A stretch of 64,000 bases of DNA from Candidatus Latescibacterota bacterium (GCA_965248265.1 CBDFJF010000002.1:2560001-2624000); one strand, 5' to 3'. Shown: positions 1 to 6,112, numbered from the stretch's first letter. Made by a program: numbers and translations. Notes: generated by a model not told the origin, from the sequence alone.

Positions 1-1479
1 TAGGACCTCGCGGCAGCGTTGCGCCGACTGCGTCCATTCACCCATGTGCTCGTCGACCTGTGCCAGCACGAGCAGAATGCCCGGCTTTCTGATTCGAGTC
101 TGCTCGGCTTCGAGAAACTCACAGGTTTCGAGGGCGGCTTCGTAGAGACGCCGGGTCGCGAGGTAGTCGCACGCGGCAAAGGCCCGCTGTCCCGACGTGA
201 TCAGATAGGGCAGCGCGCGAATGGATCTGTCACTGCGGAAGAAGTGAAATGCCAGCGATTCGATCTCGCGTGGCACTCGCCTTTCCAGCAGCTCAGCGAT
301 GCGGCGGTGAACACGTTTTCTCTCGGCCGGCGGCAGCAGCTCATACAGGGTCTCGGCCAGGATGCCGTGGGCAAACTGGAACTGCCGTTCGGTCGATTCG
401 ATGACATGGAAACGGCGCTCGATGCGGCCGAGGGTGTGCAGAACCTCCACAGTTGGGCGCCGCAGCACTGAGGCCAACAGCAGGCTTTCGAAACGCTGAC
501 CCTGTACGGCTGCACGACTCAGAAGGGACTGATATTCACTTGGCAGACCCTGCACTCGCTGGCGCACGAGCTCACGTACCGAGTGAGCCACCGGCAAATC
601 CTCGACCCGCCGATTTCTCCAGATGCCCCGCTGGCGGTAGATGATGCCACGATCTCTCAGGAACTCCAGGCATTGCAGGACAAACAGAGGGGATCCCCCC
701 GTCTTCGCGTGAAGCTGGCCGACGAGATCCTGGGTGAAGTCCGCAGGCGCGAAGCAGGAATCGGCCAGCGCTCTGGTCTCGCGCAGGGAGAGGGGTCCCA
801 GGTTCAGCAGCTCGGTCTTGGACTCGGAGCACAGGTGTAGGACGAGTCTGTTCGGTCGCTGCCAGCGACCCTGCTCGTCCGCGTGTCCGCCAGTCTGATA
901 CGCACCGACCACAAGAATCGGCATCTGATGGACCTGCTGTGCGAGCTGGCGCAGCAGCAGGAGTGCTGGCCAGTCCGCCAGATGCAAGTCGTCGATGAAG
1001 AGGACGAGGGGACGGTCTTCCGCCACCGCGAGCAACAGGGATCGGACTCGGACAACGAAGAGCGCGCGCCGCATTTCGGCATCGCCGTCGTCCTCCTCGG
1101 AGGTGACCTCTCCTTCACCGGAGAACAGGAACGGCCAAAGATGTGGTGCGAACTGCTCCACCGCGTCGCGCAGAGCTCGCTGTCCAGAGTCAGGAGCCTC
1201 GTGATCCAAGCCCTTCAGGATCTCGATGAGGCAGCCATAGGCGATCTCAGGGCCCGCTGGATCACCCCCGCCAGCGAGGTAGGGCATGCCGCACCTGTGA
1301 GCGATGCGACCCACTTCGGCAGCGAGTCGGCTCTTCCCTGATCCATCTTCGCCGGCGATCAGCACCATCGATCCGCGTCCCGCTGCGGCGGCGGCCATTT
1401 TCTGGCGCAGCAGCGCAAGATCAGCGTCTCGGCCTATGAGGTCAGACTCTATTCGACTCCCAGGACCACCACTCACCAT
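1..1479 (-). CDS. STAND-type AAA ATPase (AAA_16-like) followed by helical/TPR-like region; 3' end runs off the window
   Basis: Not in the ORF track (no stop in window). Manual translation from ATG at 1479 (GGAGG RBS upstream): LIGRDADL, Walker A GEDGSGKS, Walker B LFIDDLHLAD, GGSPLF, FQFAHGIL, then TPR-like helices. Confidence 0.85.
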   Translation of the reverse strand, partial: MVSGGPGSRIESDLIGRDADLALLRQKMAAAAAGRGSMVLIAGEDGSGKSRLAAEVGRIAHRCGMPYLAGGGDPAGPEIAYGCLIEILKGLDHEAPDSGQRALRDAVEQFAPHLWPFLFSGEGEVTSEEDDGDAEMRRALFVVRVRSLLLAVAEDRPLVLFIDDLHLADWPALLLLRQLAQQVHQMPILVVGAYQTGGHADEQGRWQRPNRLVLHLCSESKTELLNLGPLSLRETRALADSCFAPADFTQDLVGQLHAKTGGSPLFVLQCLEFLRDRGIIYRQRGIWRNRRVEDLPVAHSVRELVRQRVQGLPSEYQSLLSRAAVQGQRFESLLLASVLRRPTVEVLHTLGRIERRFHVIESTERQFQFAHGILAETLYELLPPAERKRVHRRIAELLERRVPREIESLAFHFFRSDRSIRALPYLITSGQRAFAACDYLATRRLYEAALETCEFLEAEQTRIRKPGILLVLAQVDEHMGEWTQSAQRCREVL

Positions 1480-1526
1480 AGCTTTCCTCCAGGCCACTCA
1501 AGCCCATGCCGTCACACAGCCAAGAT

Positions 1527-2258
1527 TTACAATGCATATGAGGAGTTGCGAAGCCCGTATCGGGAAAAGTGCGGGACCTCGATTACAATGGTCACGGACT
1601 CGAATGACGCCGACCCGTCGTCATCGTCATCATCGTCGTCGCCATCGTCATCATCACCATCGTCATCACCGTCATCGCCATCGTCATCGTCATCACCGTG
1701 GGTTTCGATGGAAATGATGTTGGTTTCCCCGATTTGGCCGTCATCCGAGACAACCAGAGCCCGGAGCGTGGACGGATCCATGTCCACCAATTCGGCGTCG
1801 AGCTCGATCTCCAAATAGGGGCTGGGGGCCTCTTCGACAAACCAATAGGGCGACGGTCCCAGCTCGACGACGAGCAGGCTGAGGGGCGCTGGTCGCACCG
1901 CCATCCTGATGCGCACAGCCTCGGTGACTGCGCCCTCCGGGATCACCAGTTTCAGGCTGAGATCATCATCCTCGATCTTGAGCCGTGTTTTCTCATCAGG
2001 CTCGGCGACCTTCGATGTCGAGAGCCAGTCGCCGTCATCATCATCGTCATCATCCATGGCCTTGGCGGCGACGGGCGACTGCGGCGAGAACACGAGGTAT
2101 ACCTTGCCGTCAGGCGATGATGGTCCAACGGCATCGGTATCGGAGGATGTGGGCGGGTGCTCGACCCCGCAGCCCAAGGCGGCGATGGCGAGAGACAGCC
2201 CGACCACAATGAACGGTGCAGTCAGTAGAGTTCGGATGCGCTGTGCGAACGGAACCAT
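1527..2258 (-). CDS. Acidic lipoprotein with ZU5-like domain, C-terminal HFS motif and poly-Asp inserts
   Basis: ATG at 2258 with AAGGAG RBS; signal peptide ending ALGC (lipobox); LKLVIPEGA...VELGPS...EVPHFSRYGL pattern; Asp/Gly tracts. Confidence 0.7.
   Translation of the reverse strand: MVPFAQRIRTLLTAPFIVVGLSLAIAALGCGVEHPPTSSDTDAVGPSSPDGKVYLVFSPQSPVAAKAMDDDDDDDGDWLSTSKVAEPDEKTRLKIEDDDLSLKLVIPEGAVTEAVRIRMAVRPAPLSLLVVELGPSPYWFVEEAPSPYLEIELDAELVDMDPSTLRALVVSDDGQIGETNIISIETHGDDDDDGDDGDDDGDDDDGDDDDDDDDGSASFESVTIVIEVPHFSRYGLRNSSYAL
1614..1697 (-). repeat. Low-complexity GAT/GAC repeat encoding a poly-Asp(Gly) tract
   Basis: Encodes GDDDDDGDDGDDDGDDDDGDDDDDDDDG; a second shorter tract lies at ~2031-2054. 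Confidence 0.95.
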
Positions 2259-2323
2259 AGGGGGAAAGCTCCTTTTCAAAAGGGGAAGCTCCTTTTCGAG
2301 CGAGACTGTCCAAGCATCACATG

Positions 2324-2338
2324 GCAAGAACCATACCA
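2324..2338 (-). promoter_or_regulatory. sigma54 -24/-12 promoter
   Basis: Minus strand TGGTATGGTTCTTGC (GG-N10-GC, TTGC), ~65 nt upstream of the ATG at 2258. Confidence 0.7.
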
Positions 2339-2486: not shown

Positions 2487-2864
2487 TCACGCCGTGAACT
2501 TCATTAGAATGTGCCCCATTTTGAGCAGATCATCGTCTTGCAGCCGGGTGATCGCCGAGATTCGCTCTCCATTCACGAAGGTGCCGTTCGTGCTGTTGAG
2601 GTCTTCCACCCAGAAACACCCGTCGTCGTAAGTGATCCTGGCATGGCGGGAGGACACCTCCTCGTCGTCGACGACGAGGTCATTGGCTCCGTCACGGCCG
2701 ATGGTTCGGGCGCTGTCCCCGACTAGGTACTCGCGGTTACCCTCGTCTCCCAGCAAAATGAGCCGCCCGACGATGAACGGGTCCTCCGCAAGCTTGTTGC
2801 CGCAGAACGTGCAGAAGGCGTTGTCGTTCTTGTTCTGATTGCCACAATTCGTGCACAGAATCAT
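2487..2864 (-). CDS. Zinc-ribbon + FHA domain protein
   Basis: CTNC-x10-CTFC N-terminus; FHA motifs IGR, VSSRHA, DLNSTNGTFVNG. Confidence 0.92.
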   Translation of the reverse strand: MILCTNCGNQNKNDNAFCTFCGNKLAEDPFIVGRLILLGDEGNREYLVGDSARTIGRDGANDLVVDDEEVSSRHARITYDDGCFWVEDLNSTNGTFVNGERISAITRLQDDDLLKMGHILMKFTA

Positions 2865-3145
2865 GATCCGAGTCGCGCTTTCGCCTCCTCGATGCGCTCC
2901 AGTAGAGCGTCGTTTCCAGGATCTCTCTCCAATGCTTTCTGCCAGGTCTCCAACGCCTCGCTGTACTGCTCCTGTTTGAAGTAGACGAGGCCGAGGTTGT
3001 AATAGATATCCACTAGATCCAGGGATTTCTGTGTGCGGGCGCCACTATCCATGTATCCGACCTCGTCGGACAAGCGCTCACCGCACTGCCCGCAGTAGTG
3101 GTCCCCATCCGCGTGGGGTGCTCGACAATTGGCACACTCTGGCAT
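2861..3145 (-). CDS. Zinc-ribbon + TPR protein
   Basis: CANC-x10-CGQC; TPR YYNLGLVYFKQEQYSEALETWQKALERDP. Confidence 0.88.
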   Translation of the reverse strand: MPECANCRAPHADGDHYCGQCGERLSDEVGYMDSGARTQKSLDLVDIYYNLGLVYFKQEQYSEALETWQKALERDPGNDALLERIEEAKARLGS

Positions 3146-3702
3146 CAGGCCGCCGCCAGGTCAAAACCGCAGCTGCCGCAGAAACGATCGCCCGGGTCGT
3201 ACGGCTCAGCGCATTCGCTGCAGGTCAGCTCGCGTTGCAAAGCGCCCCCGCACTGACGGCAGAAGTGGTCGTCGGACTGAGACGGTGTGCCGCACTGAGG
3301 GCAATAGCGAAATCGGCTGACCTCTTCACCCTCCAGCACGCGACGCAGCTCATCCATCAGACGCTTGACCTCGAAAGGTTTGGCGATTATGCCGCATATC
3401 CCGAGCTCGATCAGCGGGCCGATGCGATCTTCGTGCAGGTAACCGGACACGATGATCGTGGGCGGGATCGGCAAGTTCCTGCGTTTCAGGTGGGCCAGCA
3501 GGTGGTCCCCGTGCGGCCCCGGCATGTGCAGGTCCAGGAGCATGGCGTCAATCTGCTCCTCGACGATGGCGGAGGCAGCACGCGTCGCGCGCTCTACCGA
3601 CAGACTCCGGTAACCCATGCGTTCGACGATCCTCTGGATGGTATCCCGCACCGTCTTGTCATTGTCCACGATGAGGACGGTTTTCTCGCGCGTTCCATTC
3701 AT
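3145..3702 (-). CDS. Response regulator receiver domain fused to a double zinc ribbon
   Basis: VLIVDND, LLDLHMP, KPF; C-terminal CPQC/CRQC/CSEC/CGSC. Confidence 0.9.
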   Translation of the reverse strand: MNGTREKTVLIVDNDKTVRDTIQRIVERMGYRSLSVERATRAASAIVEEQIDAMLLDLHMPGPHGDHLLAHLKRRNLPIPPTIIVSGYLHEDRIGPLIELGICGIIAKPFEVKRLMDELRRVLEGEEVSRFRYCPQCGTPSQSDDHFCRQCGGALQRELTCSECAEPYDPGDRFCGSCGFDLAAA

Positions 3703-4736
3703 GGTGCTGAAGATGGATTCTCGTGCTCTCTCGATAGCTCGTGGTCGAGGGGCAAGAGCAGTCGGAAGCTCGTGCCGGCGCCCGCCTTCGTCGCCACCAG
3801 GATGTCTCCTTCGTGGTCCTCCGCTATCTTGCGACAGATCGCCAGTCCCAGACCGGTACCCCGGTCCTCATCTTTCGTACTGAAAAAGGCATCGAAAATC
3901 GAATCGAGTGCCGTCGAGTCGATGCCGGGACCATCATCGCTCACCGCCATGAACAAGCAATCGCCTTCTGGAGTCTCGTCGCCGTCGACAGCGAGCCGAA
4001 CCTGTTGGCCAGAGGCGCGCTCCGACTGAATCAGAGCAGGAATGCTGGAGATGCCGGTCTCGACATGGATATGGACGGATCCTCTTCGGTCGACCGCGTC
4101 CATGGCGTTGGTCAGCAGATTTGTCAGGACCTGCTCCATCTGCGCGGGGTAAGCCCGGACCATAGGCAGGTCCGCGGCCAGCGTCGAGTCCACGGTCGCC
4201 CGTTTCATCAGCGGGCCCAGAAATTCGAGCGTTTCCGAGACGATCTGATTCAGGTCGACGGAGTGAAGCTCGCTGGCGCTGCGTCTGGAGAAGCGCAGGA
4301 CATTTCTCGTGAGCCGACCCAACCTCTGGCCGGCCTCGATGATCATCCGCACCTCCGCCTCATCGACCGGCTCGCCCGCCCTCATCAGGATCATCTCCGC
4401 CTGGCCGACGACGACCGAGAGCGGGCTGTTGATCTCGTGCACGATGGCAGCCGCCATCTGTCCCATGGCGCTCATGCGCTCGGACCGCAGCAGCATGCGT
4501 TGCGTGTCGTGCAGCTGCTCATGGGCTTCGCGCAGCTCACTCAGCTGGGCCTGGAGCTGGTCGTTTTTCCTGCGCAACTCATCGTAGGCGAGGTGCGTCT
4601 CGTGGCCGGCGAACTGCAGCACTTTCTCCATCTGCTGATAAGCCATGGCCAGCTCCTGGAGCAGGTGTGCATTGTCTCCTCGAAGGGCCAGCAGTTCGTC
4701 GCTGCCGTTATGGTCTTGCACGGTTTGCCGTCTCAA
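3699..4736 (-). CDS. Cytoplasmic histidine kinase (coiled coil-HisKA-HATPase_c)
   Basis: H box HEINSPL, N box NLLTNAMDA, DDGPGI, FFSTK, GTGLGL; no transmembrane or sensor domain. Confidence 0.92.
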   Translation of the reverse strand: MRRQTVQDHNGSDELLALRGDNAHLLQELAMAYQQMEKVLQFAGHETHLAYDELRRKNDQLQAQLSELREAHEQLHDTQRMLLRSERMSAMGQMAAAIVHEINSPLSVVVGQAEMILMRAGEPVDEAEVRMIIEAGQRLGRLTRNVLRFSRRSASELHSVDLNQIVSETLEFLGPLMKRATVDSTLAADLPMVRAYPAQMEQVLTNLLTNAMDAVDRRGSVHIHVETGISSIPALIQSERASGQQVRLAVDGDETPEGDCLFMAVSDDGPGIDSTALDSIFDAFFSTKDEDRGTGLGLAICRKIAEDHEGDILVATKAGAGTSFRLLLPLDHELSREHENPSSAP

Positions 4737-6112
4737 TCCCCGGAATTCAGGTCGTATTTGGCCATGCGATAGCGGATCTTGTCGCGGCTGACGTGCAGCA
4801 GGTTCGCCGCCCGGCTGACGTTGCCGTCGGTGTGCTCGAGCGCGGCATCGACAACCTGACGCTCGATCTCTTCCAGCGGAATTCCTTCAGGAGGGAAGGC
4901 AATCGACACACGCCCATCTTCCCCAAACTTCAGCTCCTCACCCGCGGCAGTGCGCTTCGATCGGCGATCGATGATCAGGTCATCGGCTTGAATGATATTT
5001 CTGTCGGCCATGACCACGGCCCGTTCGATGACGTTACGCAACTCACGCACATTGCCTGGCAGGGAATAGGACATCAGAAGCTGCCGCGCATCTTCCGCCA
5101 GGCGTCGGGGAGGTGTCCCGTGCAGGGAAGAGTAGAGGTCGAGGAAATGCTCCGCGATCATCAACACATCTTCTCCCCGCAGGCGCAACGGCGGCAGTAT
5201 GAGCGGCACAACGTTGAGCCTGTAATACAGATCCTCGCGAAAGTGCCCCTCCTTCACGCGCGCTTCGAGGTCCTCATTGGTCGCGGCGAGGAAGCGCACG
5301 GAGATCTCGATCTCCTCCGTTCCGCCAACGCGGCGGATTCGCTGCGTTTCCAGCACGTGCAGGAGTTTGGCCTGCAGGTGCGAGGGCAGGAGCCCGATTT
5401 CGTCGAAAAAGAGGGTGCCGTCGTGAGCTGTTTCGACCAGTCCCTGCTTCATCGTCTTGGCATCCGTGAACGCGCCCCGTTCATGGCCGAACAGCTCCGA
5501 CTCGAGCAGGTTGCCAGGGATATTGGTGCAGTCGACGGTGACGAACGGGTTGTCGCCAAACGGGCTCAGCATGTGAATGGCGCGGGCGATGACCTCTTTG
5601 CCGGTGCCGCTTTCCCCCCGGATCAGCACCGTCGCCGTCGTCGCCGCCACCTTGTGCACCATCCGGTAGACCTCCTGCATGACCGGACTGTGGCCTATCA
5701 CGCCTTCCAGTTCCCGGAATCCCGCCGTCGAGCCGGGCTCGTCGAGGAGATGGTCGATCAGGACGCGGAGCTCGGGCAGTGGAGTGGGTTTGGTCAGGTA
5801 GTTCTCCGCCCCGAGCTTCATGGCTTCGACGACTGTGTCGACATCACTGTAGGAGCTCATGATGACGACCCTGCAGCGCGGGGCTCTGCGTTTGAACAGG
5901 CGCAAGAGGTCGAGTCCGTCACCGTCCGGCAACTTGAGATCCATAATGACGACTTGCGGTTCGATGTCGTCGAACTGGATGATCGACTCTCGCGCCGAGC
6001 GCGCGCCGTGGGCTGGAAAACCACACTCGCTTATGAACTTGGTGAGGACGTCACACAGCTGCGGATCATCCTCCACCACCATCACTTTGCCGGGCATTTT
6101 CCCTCGAAACAC
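4733..6112 (-). CDS. NtrC-family sigma54-dependent response regulator (REC-AAA+-Fis HTH)
   Basis: VEDD/DLKLP receiver, GESGTGKE, ESELFGHERGAFTDA, FREDLYYRL, GNVRELRN, C-terminal HTH. Confidence 0.95.
   Translation of the reverse strand: MFRGKMPGKVMVVEDDPQLCDVLTKFISECGFPAHGARSARESIIQFDDIEPQVVIMDLKLPDGDGLDLLRLFKRRAPRCRVVIMSSYSDVDTVVEAMKLGAENYLTKPTPLPELRVLIDHLLDEPGSTAGFRELEGVIGHSPVMQEVYRMVHKVAATTATVLIRGESGTGKEVIARAIHMLSPFGDNPFVTVDCTNIPGNLLESELFGHERGAFTDAKTMKQGLVETAHDGTLFFDEIGLLPSHLQAKLLHVLETQRIRRVGGTEEIEISVRFLAATNEDLEARVKEGHFREDLYYRLNVVPLILPPLRLRGEDVLMIAEHFLDLYSSLHGTPPRRLAEDARQLLMSYSLPGNVRELRNVIERAVVMADRNIIQADDLIIDRRSKRTAAGEELKFGEDGRVSIAFPPEGIPLEEIERQVVDAALEHTDGNVSRAANLLHVSRDKIRYRMAKYDLNSGD

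Follow-up and report, generated by a model that had tools for sequence, protein, structure and literature searches.

A predicted self-cleaving ZU5-type lipoprotein encoded beside a TPR-module gene in Latescibacterota, with a possible role in sigma-54-linked peptide signalling

We analyzed a 64,000-nucleotide (nt) stretch of DNA from Candidatus Latescibacterota (G000:C2:2560001-2624000; the window), in which all genes relevant here lie on the minus strand, and focused on the gene for a 243-residue lipoprotein, P0001, which is followed by the gene for P0002, a STAND ATPase with tetratricopeptide repeats (TPR). On the basis of the fold class of this lipoprotein family, its conserved motifs, export signals and promoters and the order of its genes, all of which were established in the analysis described below, we tentatively propose that a self-cleaving lipoprotein under sigma-54 control yields a short C-terminal peptide that acts on a cytoplasmic TPR receptor and its kinases. 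Once exported, the lipoprotein would cleave its own Phe231-Ser232 bond through an N-O acyl shift, with Ser232 as the nucleophile, Phe231 as a buried anchor and His230 as the base, and cleavage would produce the 12-residue peptide SRYGLRNSSYAL, which would at first be docked and later be releasable. The lipoprotein gene would be the first of a sigma-54-dependent unit encoding the lipoprotein, the AAA_16-TPR ATPase, a Ser/Thr kinase-AAA_16-TPR protein and a PP2C phosphatase, and this unit is preceded by sigma-54 activator, soluble histidine kinase, receiver and FHA genes. The peptide, or the cleaved state of the lipoprotein, would be the input sensed by the cytoplasmic TPR module, and the ATPase and kinase partners of this module would in turn act on the sigma-54 activator, closing a peptide signalling loop that runs from the envelope to the cytoplasm.

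The open reading frame (ORF) of P0001 spans 1527-2339 on the minus strand, with a likely start at ATG 2258 and the stop codon at 1529-1527, and the gene is present as a single copy in the G000 genome. The N-terminus consists of basic residues, a hydrophobic stretch and then a lipobox, AALGC30, which fits the PROSITE-type pattern; as read from these features, P0001 is likely an exported, lipid-anchored protein. Three motifs that had been noticed in an earlier reading of this DNA, made without database searches (the sequence-only reading), are all present in P0001: L104-V-I-P-E-G-A110, V131-E-L-G-P135 and P229-H-F-S-R-Y234, with the HFS codons read at 1571..1563 on the minus strand. The segment HFSRYGL of P0001 is also close to HFSKYGL, the putative Nup98 motif, on which a literature search returned nothing relevant. 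Only a linker precedes the predicted beta-sandwich, and only 12 residues follow the predicted cut.

The fold was examined with two AlphaFold2 (AF2) models, the first built with 10 sequences (mean predicted local distance difference test score [pLDDT] of 65) and the second with 134 sequences (mean 76.9), in which pLDDT reached 90-97 over residues 80-190 and 221-230. Both models were searched with VIA-align against all 48,161 PDB cluster representatives and gave the same picture. The best match of both was the ZU5 domain of AnkB (Z 8.6-8.7, root-mean-square deviation 2.5-2.6, 108-109 residues aligned, 20% identity), and the ZU5 domains of ANK1, UNC5b and ZO-1 scored Z 6.6-7.6; altogether, ZU5 domains made up five of the top nine solved matches for both models. 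GAIN domains (GPR110, CD97, Gpr126, CELSR1, GPR56, BAI3 and latrophilin-3) were matched at Z 5.6-7.6, the NLRP1 FIIND at Z 4.4-4.8, CARD8 at Z 4.2 and the autoproteolytic domain of Nup145N at Z 4.2. The ZU5, GPS/GAIN and Nup96/98 domains were united in one superfamily in the main text of Zhang et al. (2012, PMC3482391). The fold assignment carries weight because nearly all of the top structural matches belong to one superfamily.

Profile searches pointed in the same direction at lower significance. Among 134 members of the family, the commonest weak Pfam match was ZU5, with 23 proteins (best E 3.6e-4) against 4 for the Pfam family ranking next, and among 10 family members tested separately it was weakly matched in two (best E 0.018). 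In the ESM Atlas, the clusters nearest to P0001 carry ZU5 on about half of their members, which are mostly from Gemmatimonadota. Several results weigh against the assignment. By VIA-align's own note a Z of 8.6 is only middling; P0001 itself had no match to Pfam ZU5 (PF00791) even at E up to 10 and so fell short of the curated threshold; and family profiles (A1, A4) compared with PDB sequences retrieved no ZU5 chain, only poly-Asp or chance matches. Furthermore, the Foldseek comparison with ZU5 structures that the sequence-only reading had proposed gave no significant match: with either model, nothing in the PDB was found at E <=0.001 and ZU5 chains appeared only at E 0.4-0.6, so the fold assignment rests on VIA-align. 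Altogether, a modeled ZU5-type beta-sandwich core of the ZU5/GAIN/Nup98 superfamily is well supported for P0001, and the ZU5-like fold that had been predicted from the sequence was recovered, with AnkB ZU5 as the best match (Z 8.6) and GAIN domains next.

A word-indexed search found nine true relatives of P0001 (34-69% identity), none named or carrying a Pfam domain, and a profile search of 1.84 billion representatives extended the family to 353 proteins at E <=1e-3, 164 of them at E <=1e-10. The members are about 200 residues long. No NCBIfam or PADLOC model matches the lipoprotein family. It is present in 20 of 168 Latescibacterota genomes including G000, and in 4 of 52 high-quality genomes; two named relatives belong to Candidatus Latescibacterota. 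A PROSITE-like lipobox pattern was matched in 128 of 163 members, and 115 of the 135 aligned sequences keep the lipobox Cys; one subgroup has an ordinary signal peptide in place of the lipobox. This subgroup also carries an A-x-E-E-[ST]-W-G motif (L043:7569-8709, also L072). In the family alignment, a conserved C-G-x-[DE]-x-S-P-x-A directly follows the lipobox Cys (P0001 residues 30-38), and Lys66 is nearly invariant (126/135) within an A-A-K motif (residues 57-66).

At the C-terminal motif, 10 close homologues show no variation in F231, S232, R233 or Y234; in the 135-sequence alignment, of 132 filled rows, 131 have F231, all 132 have S232, 129 have Y234 and 111 have R233. A [G/H/S]-F-S motif lies near the C-terminus of 159 of 163 members. 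The invariance of F231-Y234, together with the family-wide F-S, indicates that the motifs of P0001 are not due to chance. One family copy in L046 ends in H-F-T followed by an acidic tail.

The position of this motif agrees with that of the scissile bond in known self-cleaving domains. Structural alignments of the P0001 model stopped at residue 231 or 232 (UNC5b 541..677, NLRP1 1092..1212, Nup145N 459..606), and Phe231 was the last residue aligned with UNC5b 677 and NLRP1 1212; the structure search reports first and last aligned residues only, and the match of cut sites is therefore one of alignment ends and not a residue-by-residue superposition. In the parts of D'Osualdo et al. (PMC3210808) that treat these sites, CARD8 Phe-296 corresponds to UNC5b Leu-677 and the NLRP1 nucleophile is Ser-1213. 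The alignments ending at 231/232 place Phe231-Ser232 where proven self-cleaving members have their scissile bond, and a structurally equivalent cut site for HFS is, at the level of the model, well supported.

The putative catalytic histidine occupies one of two positions. An HF/S motif, as the sequence-only reading had described, is present in P0001, but most of the family has G-F-S instead and carries its His on another strand, at alignment column 169 (Val169 in P0001), about 31 residues before the Phe in typical members. Among 132 representatives with both columns filled, His was found at column 169 only in 120, at position -2 only in 9, at both in 1 and at neither in 2; for 30 proteins from the genomic loci the corresponding numbers were 22, 8, 0 and 0, and for the combined set of 163 (3 unscored) they were 141, 16, 1 and 2. 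The same source (PMC3210808) describes, for the proteins it treats, a His at -2 in PIDD and Nup98 (HFS), and for CARD8 a Ser at -2 (SFS) with a requirement for the distal His-252 and His-270. The either-or position of the His parallels the difference between PIDD/Nup98 and CARD8/NLRP1, which argues for self-cleavage. A FastTree tree, built with both His columns removed, showed that the pattern is partly inherited and needs at least 4 switches; there were 2 independent pairs on supported branches (5 on all branches), too few for significance in a sign test. The His pattern in these sequences is, with these points on the other side, good but not decisive support for catalysis.

By analogy with the chemistry of the known families, P0001 probably cleaves itself between F231 and S232. 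A bacterial precedent is given by MAIN domains with HFS, several of which, according to the main text of a preprint (Brogan and Rudner, bioRxiv 10.64898/2026.05.12.724683), are cut between F and S as judged from Edman degradation and serine mutants, and whose cleavage products stay associated.

The tail that cleavage would detach from P0001 is the 12-residue stretch after Phe231 that the sequence-only reading had given. Counted from the serine to the last residue, tails in the family have a median length of 9 (7-10 in 107 of 159 members), and their core, SRY[SG][LM], is conserved throughout. Some tails are elaborated: five representatives (P0046, P0069, P0076, P0112 and P0156) have a second SRYSPGGG[FYW] unit at the very C-terminus, four (P0055, P0061, P0066 and P0071) have a Cys pair, C-x8-10-C-G-F, and many of the extended tails are acidic, with W, F or Y as the last residue. 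The Cys pairs would fit an oxidising compartment, as if the peptide were cyclised by a disulfide, and together with the repeated SRYSPGGGF units they hint that the tail may be more than a strand. We considered a PGF-CTERM sorting signal and rejected it, since the PGF is not followed by a transmembrane helix.

A rather improbable alternative is that the protein does not cleave at all and that FSRY caps the structure or serves as a tag for docking or sorting. For instance, the TPR protein could act as a chaperone or a sensor of secretion stress that binds the tag in the cytoplasm before export, or an envelope protease could target it. The best structural matches, the ZU5 domains of ankyrin, UNC5b and ZO-1, are non-cleaving, and the acidic extended tails ending in W, F or Y would suit such a tag. 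TPR domains often bind C-terminal peptides, which counts on the same side. However, the invariant F-S with a His at one of two positions, seen in 157 of 160 proteins, is the signature of the cleaving members of the superfamily. Non-cleaving ZU5 domains do not carry it, UNC5b having Leu at the Phe position in the comparison made in PMC3210808.

The link of the lipoprotein to a TPR gene was examined in 20 Latescibacterota loci, where three ORFs on each side of the family gene or genes, and those between tandem copies, were compared with Pfam (122 ORFs). A TPR-module gene was the next same-strand gene in 18 of the 20 loci. Thirteen metagenome loci were reduced to 7 non-redundant ones (L060, L062, L064, L069 and L072 were dropped as copies and L070 was too short), and a TPR-module gene was adjacent in 4 of these. 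The sequence-only reading had specified beforehand that homologues should be found next to STAND genes; they do lie beside STAND/TPR genes, in these 18 of 20 and 4 of 7 loci. Its pairing of the lipoprotein with a STAND ATPase holds as far as adjacency is concerned, but the ATPase is fused to the TPR module in only 6 of the 18 adjacent cases: L040 (as a 410-residue partial ORF), L041, L042, L045, L049 and L056, the last of which has a TPR-only gene first and then a kinase-AAA_16-TPR gene. The same fusion is found in the window and in one metagenome locus. The remaining adjacent partners are TPR-only proteins of about 400 residues, which align collinearly with P0002 residues 470-800 (20-27% identity) and, by eye, have no hydrophobic N-terminus. 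The conserved partner of the lipoprotein is thus a cytoplasmic TPR module of about 330 residues and not a STAND ATPase.

The gene for P0002 has an ATG at 1479, preceded by GGAGGA, which gives the 47-nt gap to a same-strand ATPase-TPR gene that had been noted from the sequence; an alternative start at GTG 1497 would leave a gap of 29 nt and, read through adjacent DNA, a protein of 807 residues with AAA_16 from residue 20 and TPRs to the end. Pfam matched AAA_16 (E 2e-20 to 5e-20), TPR_12 (E 2e-21) and TPR_MalT (E 1e-9, below its cut-off), and the Walker A and B motifs are GEDGSGKS and LVLFIDD. By its P-loop and repeat arm, as read from the sequence, P0002 is an AAA_16/MalT-like STAND protein. 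In 5 related loci the lipoprotein gene is followed by an orthologue of the P0002 gene, with 30-40% identity. No effector or other Pfam domain was found in P0002 at E up to 0.01; an effector on the ATPase, which the sequence-only reading had expected in the adjacent DNA, was absent there, and the kinase domain is carried by the next gene instead. A complex prediction of P0002 residues 440-807 with lipoprotein residues 46-243 scored 0.01, in a run without controls, which counts neither for nor against an interaction.

Gene order in the metagenome loci included an activator, two lipoprotein genes and an AAA_16-TPR gene in L061, and lipoprotein, TPR, lipoprotein, TPR in L071, where the pair is duplicated as a unit. 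Genes for FHA, histidine-kinase, Ser/Thr-kinase and PP2C proteins recur around the family gene in related loci. In L046 (G042:C1:7945000-7964999), three family members and three TPR-only genes form a cluster that is broken up by transposase genes of the IS110 and DDE types, and one of the TPR genes is followed by a PspA gene. At L049:6594-7215 the lipoprotein gene is split across two frames, and at L040:4062-5294 the STAND gene is the 410-residue ORF already mentioned, with the ATPase half only; these are frameshifts or assembly errors.

Furthermore, we scanned 28 loci (663,596 positions, both strands) for sigma-54 type -24/-12 elements, using TGGCAC-N5-TTGCW with GG and GC fixed. Twenty sites had at most one mismatch. 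Of these, 13 are found on the coding strand a short distance before a family gene, and the three perfect sites are all among the 13; one further site of this quality precedes the STAND gene of L061. The element of the window keeps GG-N10-GC about 65 nt before the ATG and has 3 mismatches. In the window, 30 elements with up to 2 mismatches were observed against 28 expected, and a site with 3 mismatches is not above chance on its own; it is credible because near-perfect elements occupy the same place in related loci. The sigma-54 promoter of the sequence-only reading is therefore clear in the relatives but only plausible at 2322-2337, as judged from the sequence. In 9 of the 20 related loci, and also in L061, the three ORFs preceding the lipoprotein gene include one for a sigma-54 activator. 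In L051 and L054 the activators beside the module have no receiver domain (339 residues, PspF-like), pointing to regulation in trans through a partner. L043, which has no adjacent TPR gene, has a sigma-54-like site with 1 mismatch. A scan of 1300-2700 for sigma-70 promoters and terminators found none on the minus strand.

The leader DNA shows further features. In the 5' leader of the lipoprotein gene, at 2262-2297, a 16-nt unit, GAAAAGGAGCTT(T/C)CCC on the coding strand, occurs in two direct copies 20 nt apart, each containing an AAGGAG Shine-Dalgarno-like core. An imperfect palindrome at 2443-2489, with 23-nt arms that are 83% complementary and two TGGGnAnTAnTCCCCAG units, overlaps the stop of the FHA gene and is located 105-150 nt upstream of the -24/-12 element; the activator may bind there, or the upstream operon may end there.

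Together, these results strengthen a signalling reading, because the gene is locked beside a TPR/STAND receptor gene and a sigma-54 circuit across Latescibacterota. Gene order is the evidence for the step from peptide to TPR module, and we regard this step as doubtful. Several points count against the proposal as a whole. Cleavage at F-S is, for every family member, a prediction by analogy. The tail had a pLDDT below 50 in both models and is unstructured in them, so that docking as a last strand finds no support in the models either. The SRY[SG][LM] core is nearly identical throughout the family, unlike pheromones, whose sequences bear specificity. The operon contains no peptide importer gene, and the lipoprotein and the TPR protein belong to different compartments. 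No TPR gene is adjacent in 2 of the 20 loci, L043 (of the non-lipoprotein subgroup) and L050, and there are 2-3 lipoprotein genes per TPR gene in L041, L045, L055 and L061. The neighbouring ORFs were also called by a simple longest-ORF rule, which is crude.

Some of these points would favor a different outcome of cleavage, in which the tail stays bound as the last strand, the lipoprotein is a structural protein of the envelope or a sensor there of stress, force or a ligand and merely shares a sigma-54 regulon with the TPR, STAND and kinase genes, and no peptide enters the cytoplasm. The two parts of cleaved GAIN, MAIN, CARD8 and Nup98 stay together, the alternating conserved pattern of SRY[SG][LM] fits a docked strand, and the operon is without an importer; in addition, the PspA gene of L046 and the PspF-like activators of L051 and L054 hint at an envelope-stress regulon. 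However, a bound tail would leave unexplained why the TPR gene is adjacent in 18 of 20 loci and why the pair is duplicated as a unit in L071, and it does not account for the repeated SRYSPGGGF units and Cys-bridged tails that extend beyond a strand. We consider it unlikely.

The features of the window that bear on the proposal are collected below. The FHA gene is separated from the lipoprotein gene by a 228-nt spacer and likewise precedes it in L042, L049 and L055. Beyond the window edge, a gene for a 1111-residue Ser/Thr kinase-AAA_16-TPR protein overlaps the P0002 gene by 4 nt and is followed after 13 nt by a PP2C phosphatase gene; genes for a SusC-like TonB-dependent receptor and a SusD-like lipoprotein come after the PP2C gene (L007:2024-6666, upstream of the window start).

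Features in the first part of the window (positions counted from its first nucleotide)
Feature	Position	Strand	Evidence
NtrC-type sigma-54 activator gene (receiver, AAA+, helix-turn-helix [HTH])	4733..6112	-	NCBIfam AtoC/NtrC matches, below cut-off
Soluble histidine kinase gene	3699..4736	-	ORF; kinase domains by Pfam only for the L041 and L042 orthologues
Receiver-double Zn-ribbon gene	3145..3702	-	Pfam, ORF
Zn-ribbon-TPR gene	2861..3145	-	Pfam, ORF
Zn-ribbon-FHA gene, directly upstream of the lipoprotein gene	2487..2864	-	Pfam FHA, E 8.5e-23
Plausible sigma-54 type -24/-12 element, TGGTATGGTTCTTGCC	2322..2337	-	Sequence, homologous place in relatives
ZU5/GAIN-like lipoprotein gene (P0001, 243 aa), stop codon included	1527..2258	-	ORF, translation
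Probable signal peptide with lipobox AALGC (residues 1-30, Cys30)	2169..2258	-	Read from sequence
Shorter Asp/Gly-rich loop (residues 69-77)	2028..2054	-	Translation
Modeled beta-sandwich core, ZU5/GAIN_B-like (residues 78-231)	1566..2027	-	AF2 model and structure alignment
Long Asp/Gly-rich loop before the last strand (residues 188-215)	1614..1697	-	Translation
H230-F231-S232, predicted autoproteolytic site (cut between F and S)	1563..1571	-	F-S invariance, structural alignment ends
C-terminal tail SRYGLRNSSYAL, 12 aa (residues 232-243)	1530..1565	-	Translation
Spacer of 47 nt with Shine-Dalgarno GGAGGA (1485-1490)	1480..1526	-	Sequence
AAA_16-TPR STAND ATPase gene, 5' part (P0002), runs off the window	1..1479	-	Pfam

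In the segment 2487-3702 of the window, the FHA, single-TPR and receiver proteins each have N- or C-terminal zinc ribbons, and zinc-ribbon fusions of FHA, TPR or receiver proteins recur beside the module in L041, L042, L049 and L053. The Asp/Gly-rich loop of P0001 is variable but present in the close homologues and is absent from P0009 and most family members; metal binding may be one possibility for the two loops. Coding DNA rich in GAT/GAC that resembles the lipoprotein loops is found elsewhere in the genome at G000:C1:283543-283789 and C1:530293-530369.

The presence of STAND ATPases and a kinase in one operon also raises the idea of an NLR-like conflict or anti-phage system, with the ATPases as sensors, the kinase as effector and the lipoprotein as a surface decoy or receptor. 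STAND-TPR and kinase-STAND architectures are known from defence systems, and the kinase domain matches the PADLOC models PD-T4-6 and mad6; however, these matches cover only the generic kinase domain, the lipoprotein and the ATPase part of P0002 match no PADLOC model, and P0002 gives only a generic TPR match. Most partners are TPR-only and have no ATPase, the phylum-wide synteny with two-component, FHA, PP2C and sigma-54 genes resembles housekeeping signalling, and mobile elements occur in just 3 of the 20 loci: L046 (IS110- and DDE-type), L053 (DUF772) and L056 (HTH-integrase-core). A defence function is accordingly very improbable. The related suggestion that the locus echoes NLRP1, with a ZU5 domain and an NLR-like protein side by side, stands as an analogy, but no homology of arrangement was seen; an ancestral NLRP1-like ZU5 plus NLR unit was rejected, as most partners have no ATPase and the two proteins are in different compartments.

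The domain class and the chemistry proposed here are already known from animals, from giant surface proteins and polymorphic toxins of bacteria (PMC3482391) and from MAIN proteins. With the autoproteolytic ZU5 domains of animals (PIDD and Nup98 with HF/S; the FIINDs of CARD8 and NLRP1 with SF/S), the family shares the beta-sandwich, the x-F-S at the end of the domain, the equivalent Phe and the two options for the His. Nup98 sheds a short C-terminal tail. Unlike the animal members, P0001 is bacterial, exported and lipid-anchored, with no UPA, death-fold or nucleoporin context, its family has only 7-12 residues after the cut, and its similarity to Pfam ZU5 is below threshold. The MAIN domains, as described in the text of the preprint (bioRxiv 10.64898/2026.05.12.724683), are like P0001 in being bacterial, exported and GAIN_B-like, with a signal peptide and HFS, but they belong to large proteins (mean 158 kDa), mostly of Bacillota, that carry adhesion or enzyme cargo ahead of the domain and are anchored to the wall by the C-terminus. 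P0001, in contrast, is a stand-alone domain with an N-terminal lipid anchor, no such cargo or wall anchor, and a short peptide as the would-be release. In the main text of Zhang et al. (PMC3482391), the bacterial ZU5 domain is a processing autopeptidase of exported proteins, namely polymorphic toxins and large surface proteins, and is N-terminal in giant RHS or adhesin proteins, whereas P0001 is small and stands alone.

Neither the small lipoprotein form nor a TPR partner or sigma-54 control was found in that main text (Additional File 1 lying outside it), and the words lipoprotein, TPR and ZU5 are absent from the text of the MAIN preprint, its supplementary tables apart. More broadly, the minimal lipoprotein form, its TPR/STAND neighbor and sigma-54 control were not found in the literature covered, which did not extend to the supplementary lists of the MAIN preprint and Zhang et al.; a search combining autoproteolysis, lipoprotein, tetratricopeptide, sigma-54 and peptide signal returned only PMC7159879, through its reference list.

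The pairing with a TPR gene invites comparison with regulators of other kinds. In RRNPP systems (Rap, NprR, PlcR and PrgX), the gene for an exported pro-peptide lies beside that for a cytoplasmic TPR protein, the signal is a short C-terminal peptide, and autoinduction is possible by way of a dedicated regulator. The likeness is one of analogy only, a small exported precursor gene next to a cytoplasmic TPR gene. Unlike the RRNPP pro-peptides, which are cut by other proteases, the P0001 precursor is a folded, putatively self-processing domain; P0002 and the TPR-only partners have no HTH or phosphatase domain, no Opp genes are nearby, the host is diderm, and the peptide core is conserved and not variable. 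P0002 resembles MalT/AfsR-like STAND ATPases in its AAA_16 P-loop, its Walker A and B motifs and its MalT-like arm of TPRs, but it has no DNA-binding or effector domain and is paired with a kinase-fused paralogue and a lipoprotein.

The lipoprotein-TPR pair may represent an undescribed peptide signalling unit. In animals, self-cleaving ZU5, GAIN and FIIND domains control apoptosis, inflammasomes and signalling by adhesion G-protein-coupled receptors (GPCRs), whereas in bacteria such domains have so far been described only in giant surface proteins, as devices for release. That the domain here stands bare and would set free nothing but a short peptide suggests that this chemistry can also serve signalling. 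An atlas look-up suggests the same linkage in Gemmatimonadota. A widespread principle, in which a tethered peptide of 7-12 residues is released to report on the envelope or on cell density and is read by a dedicated cytoplasmic TPR receptor, in the window the sensor arm of an NLR-like STAND ATPase, that acts through kinases and a sigma-54 activator to re-induce the lipoprotein, appears unlikely at present. The family also constitutes a natural experiment on a catalytic histidine at two alternative positions, and, as the system is small and easily expressed, cleavage could be tested in it, as could the recognition of a ligand by the TPR arm of a STAND-type protein. If the proposed mechanism is true, the tethered agonist of adhesion GPCRs would have a counterpart in prokaryotes, and a bacterial STAND protein would gain a genetically encoded peptide ligand.

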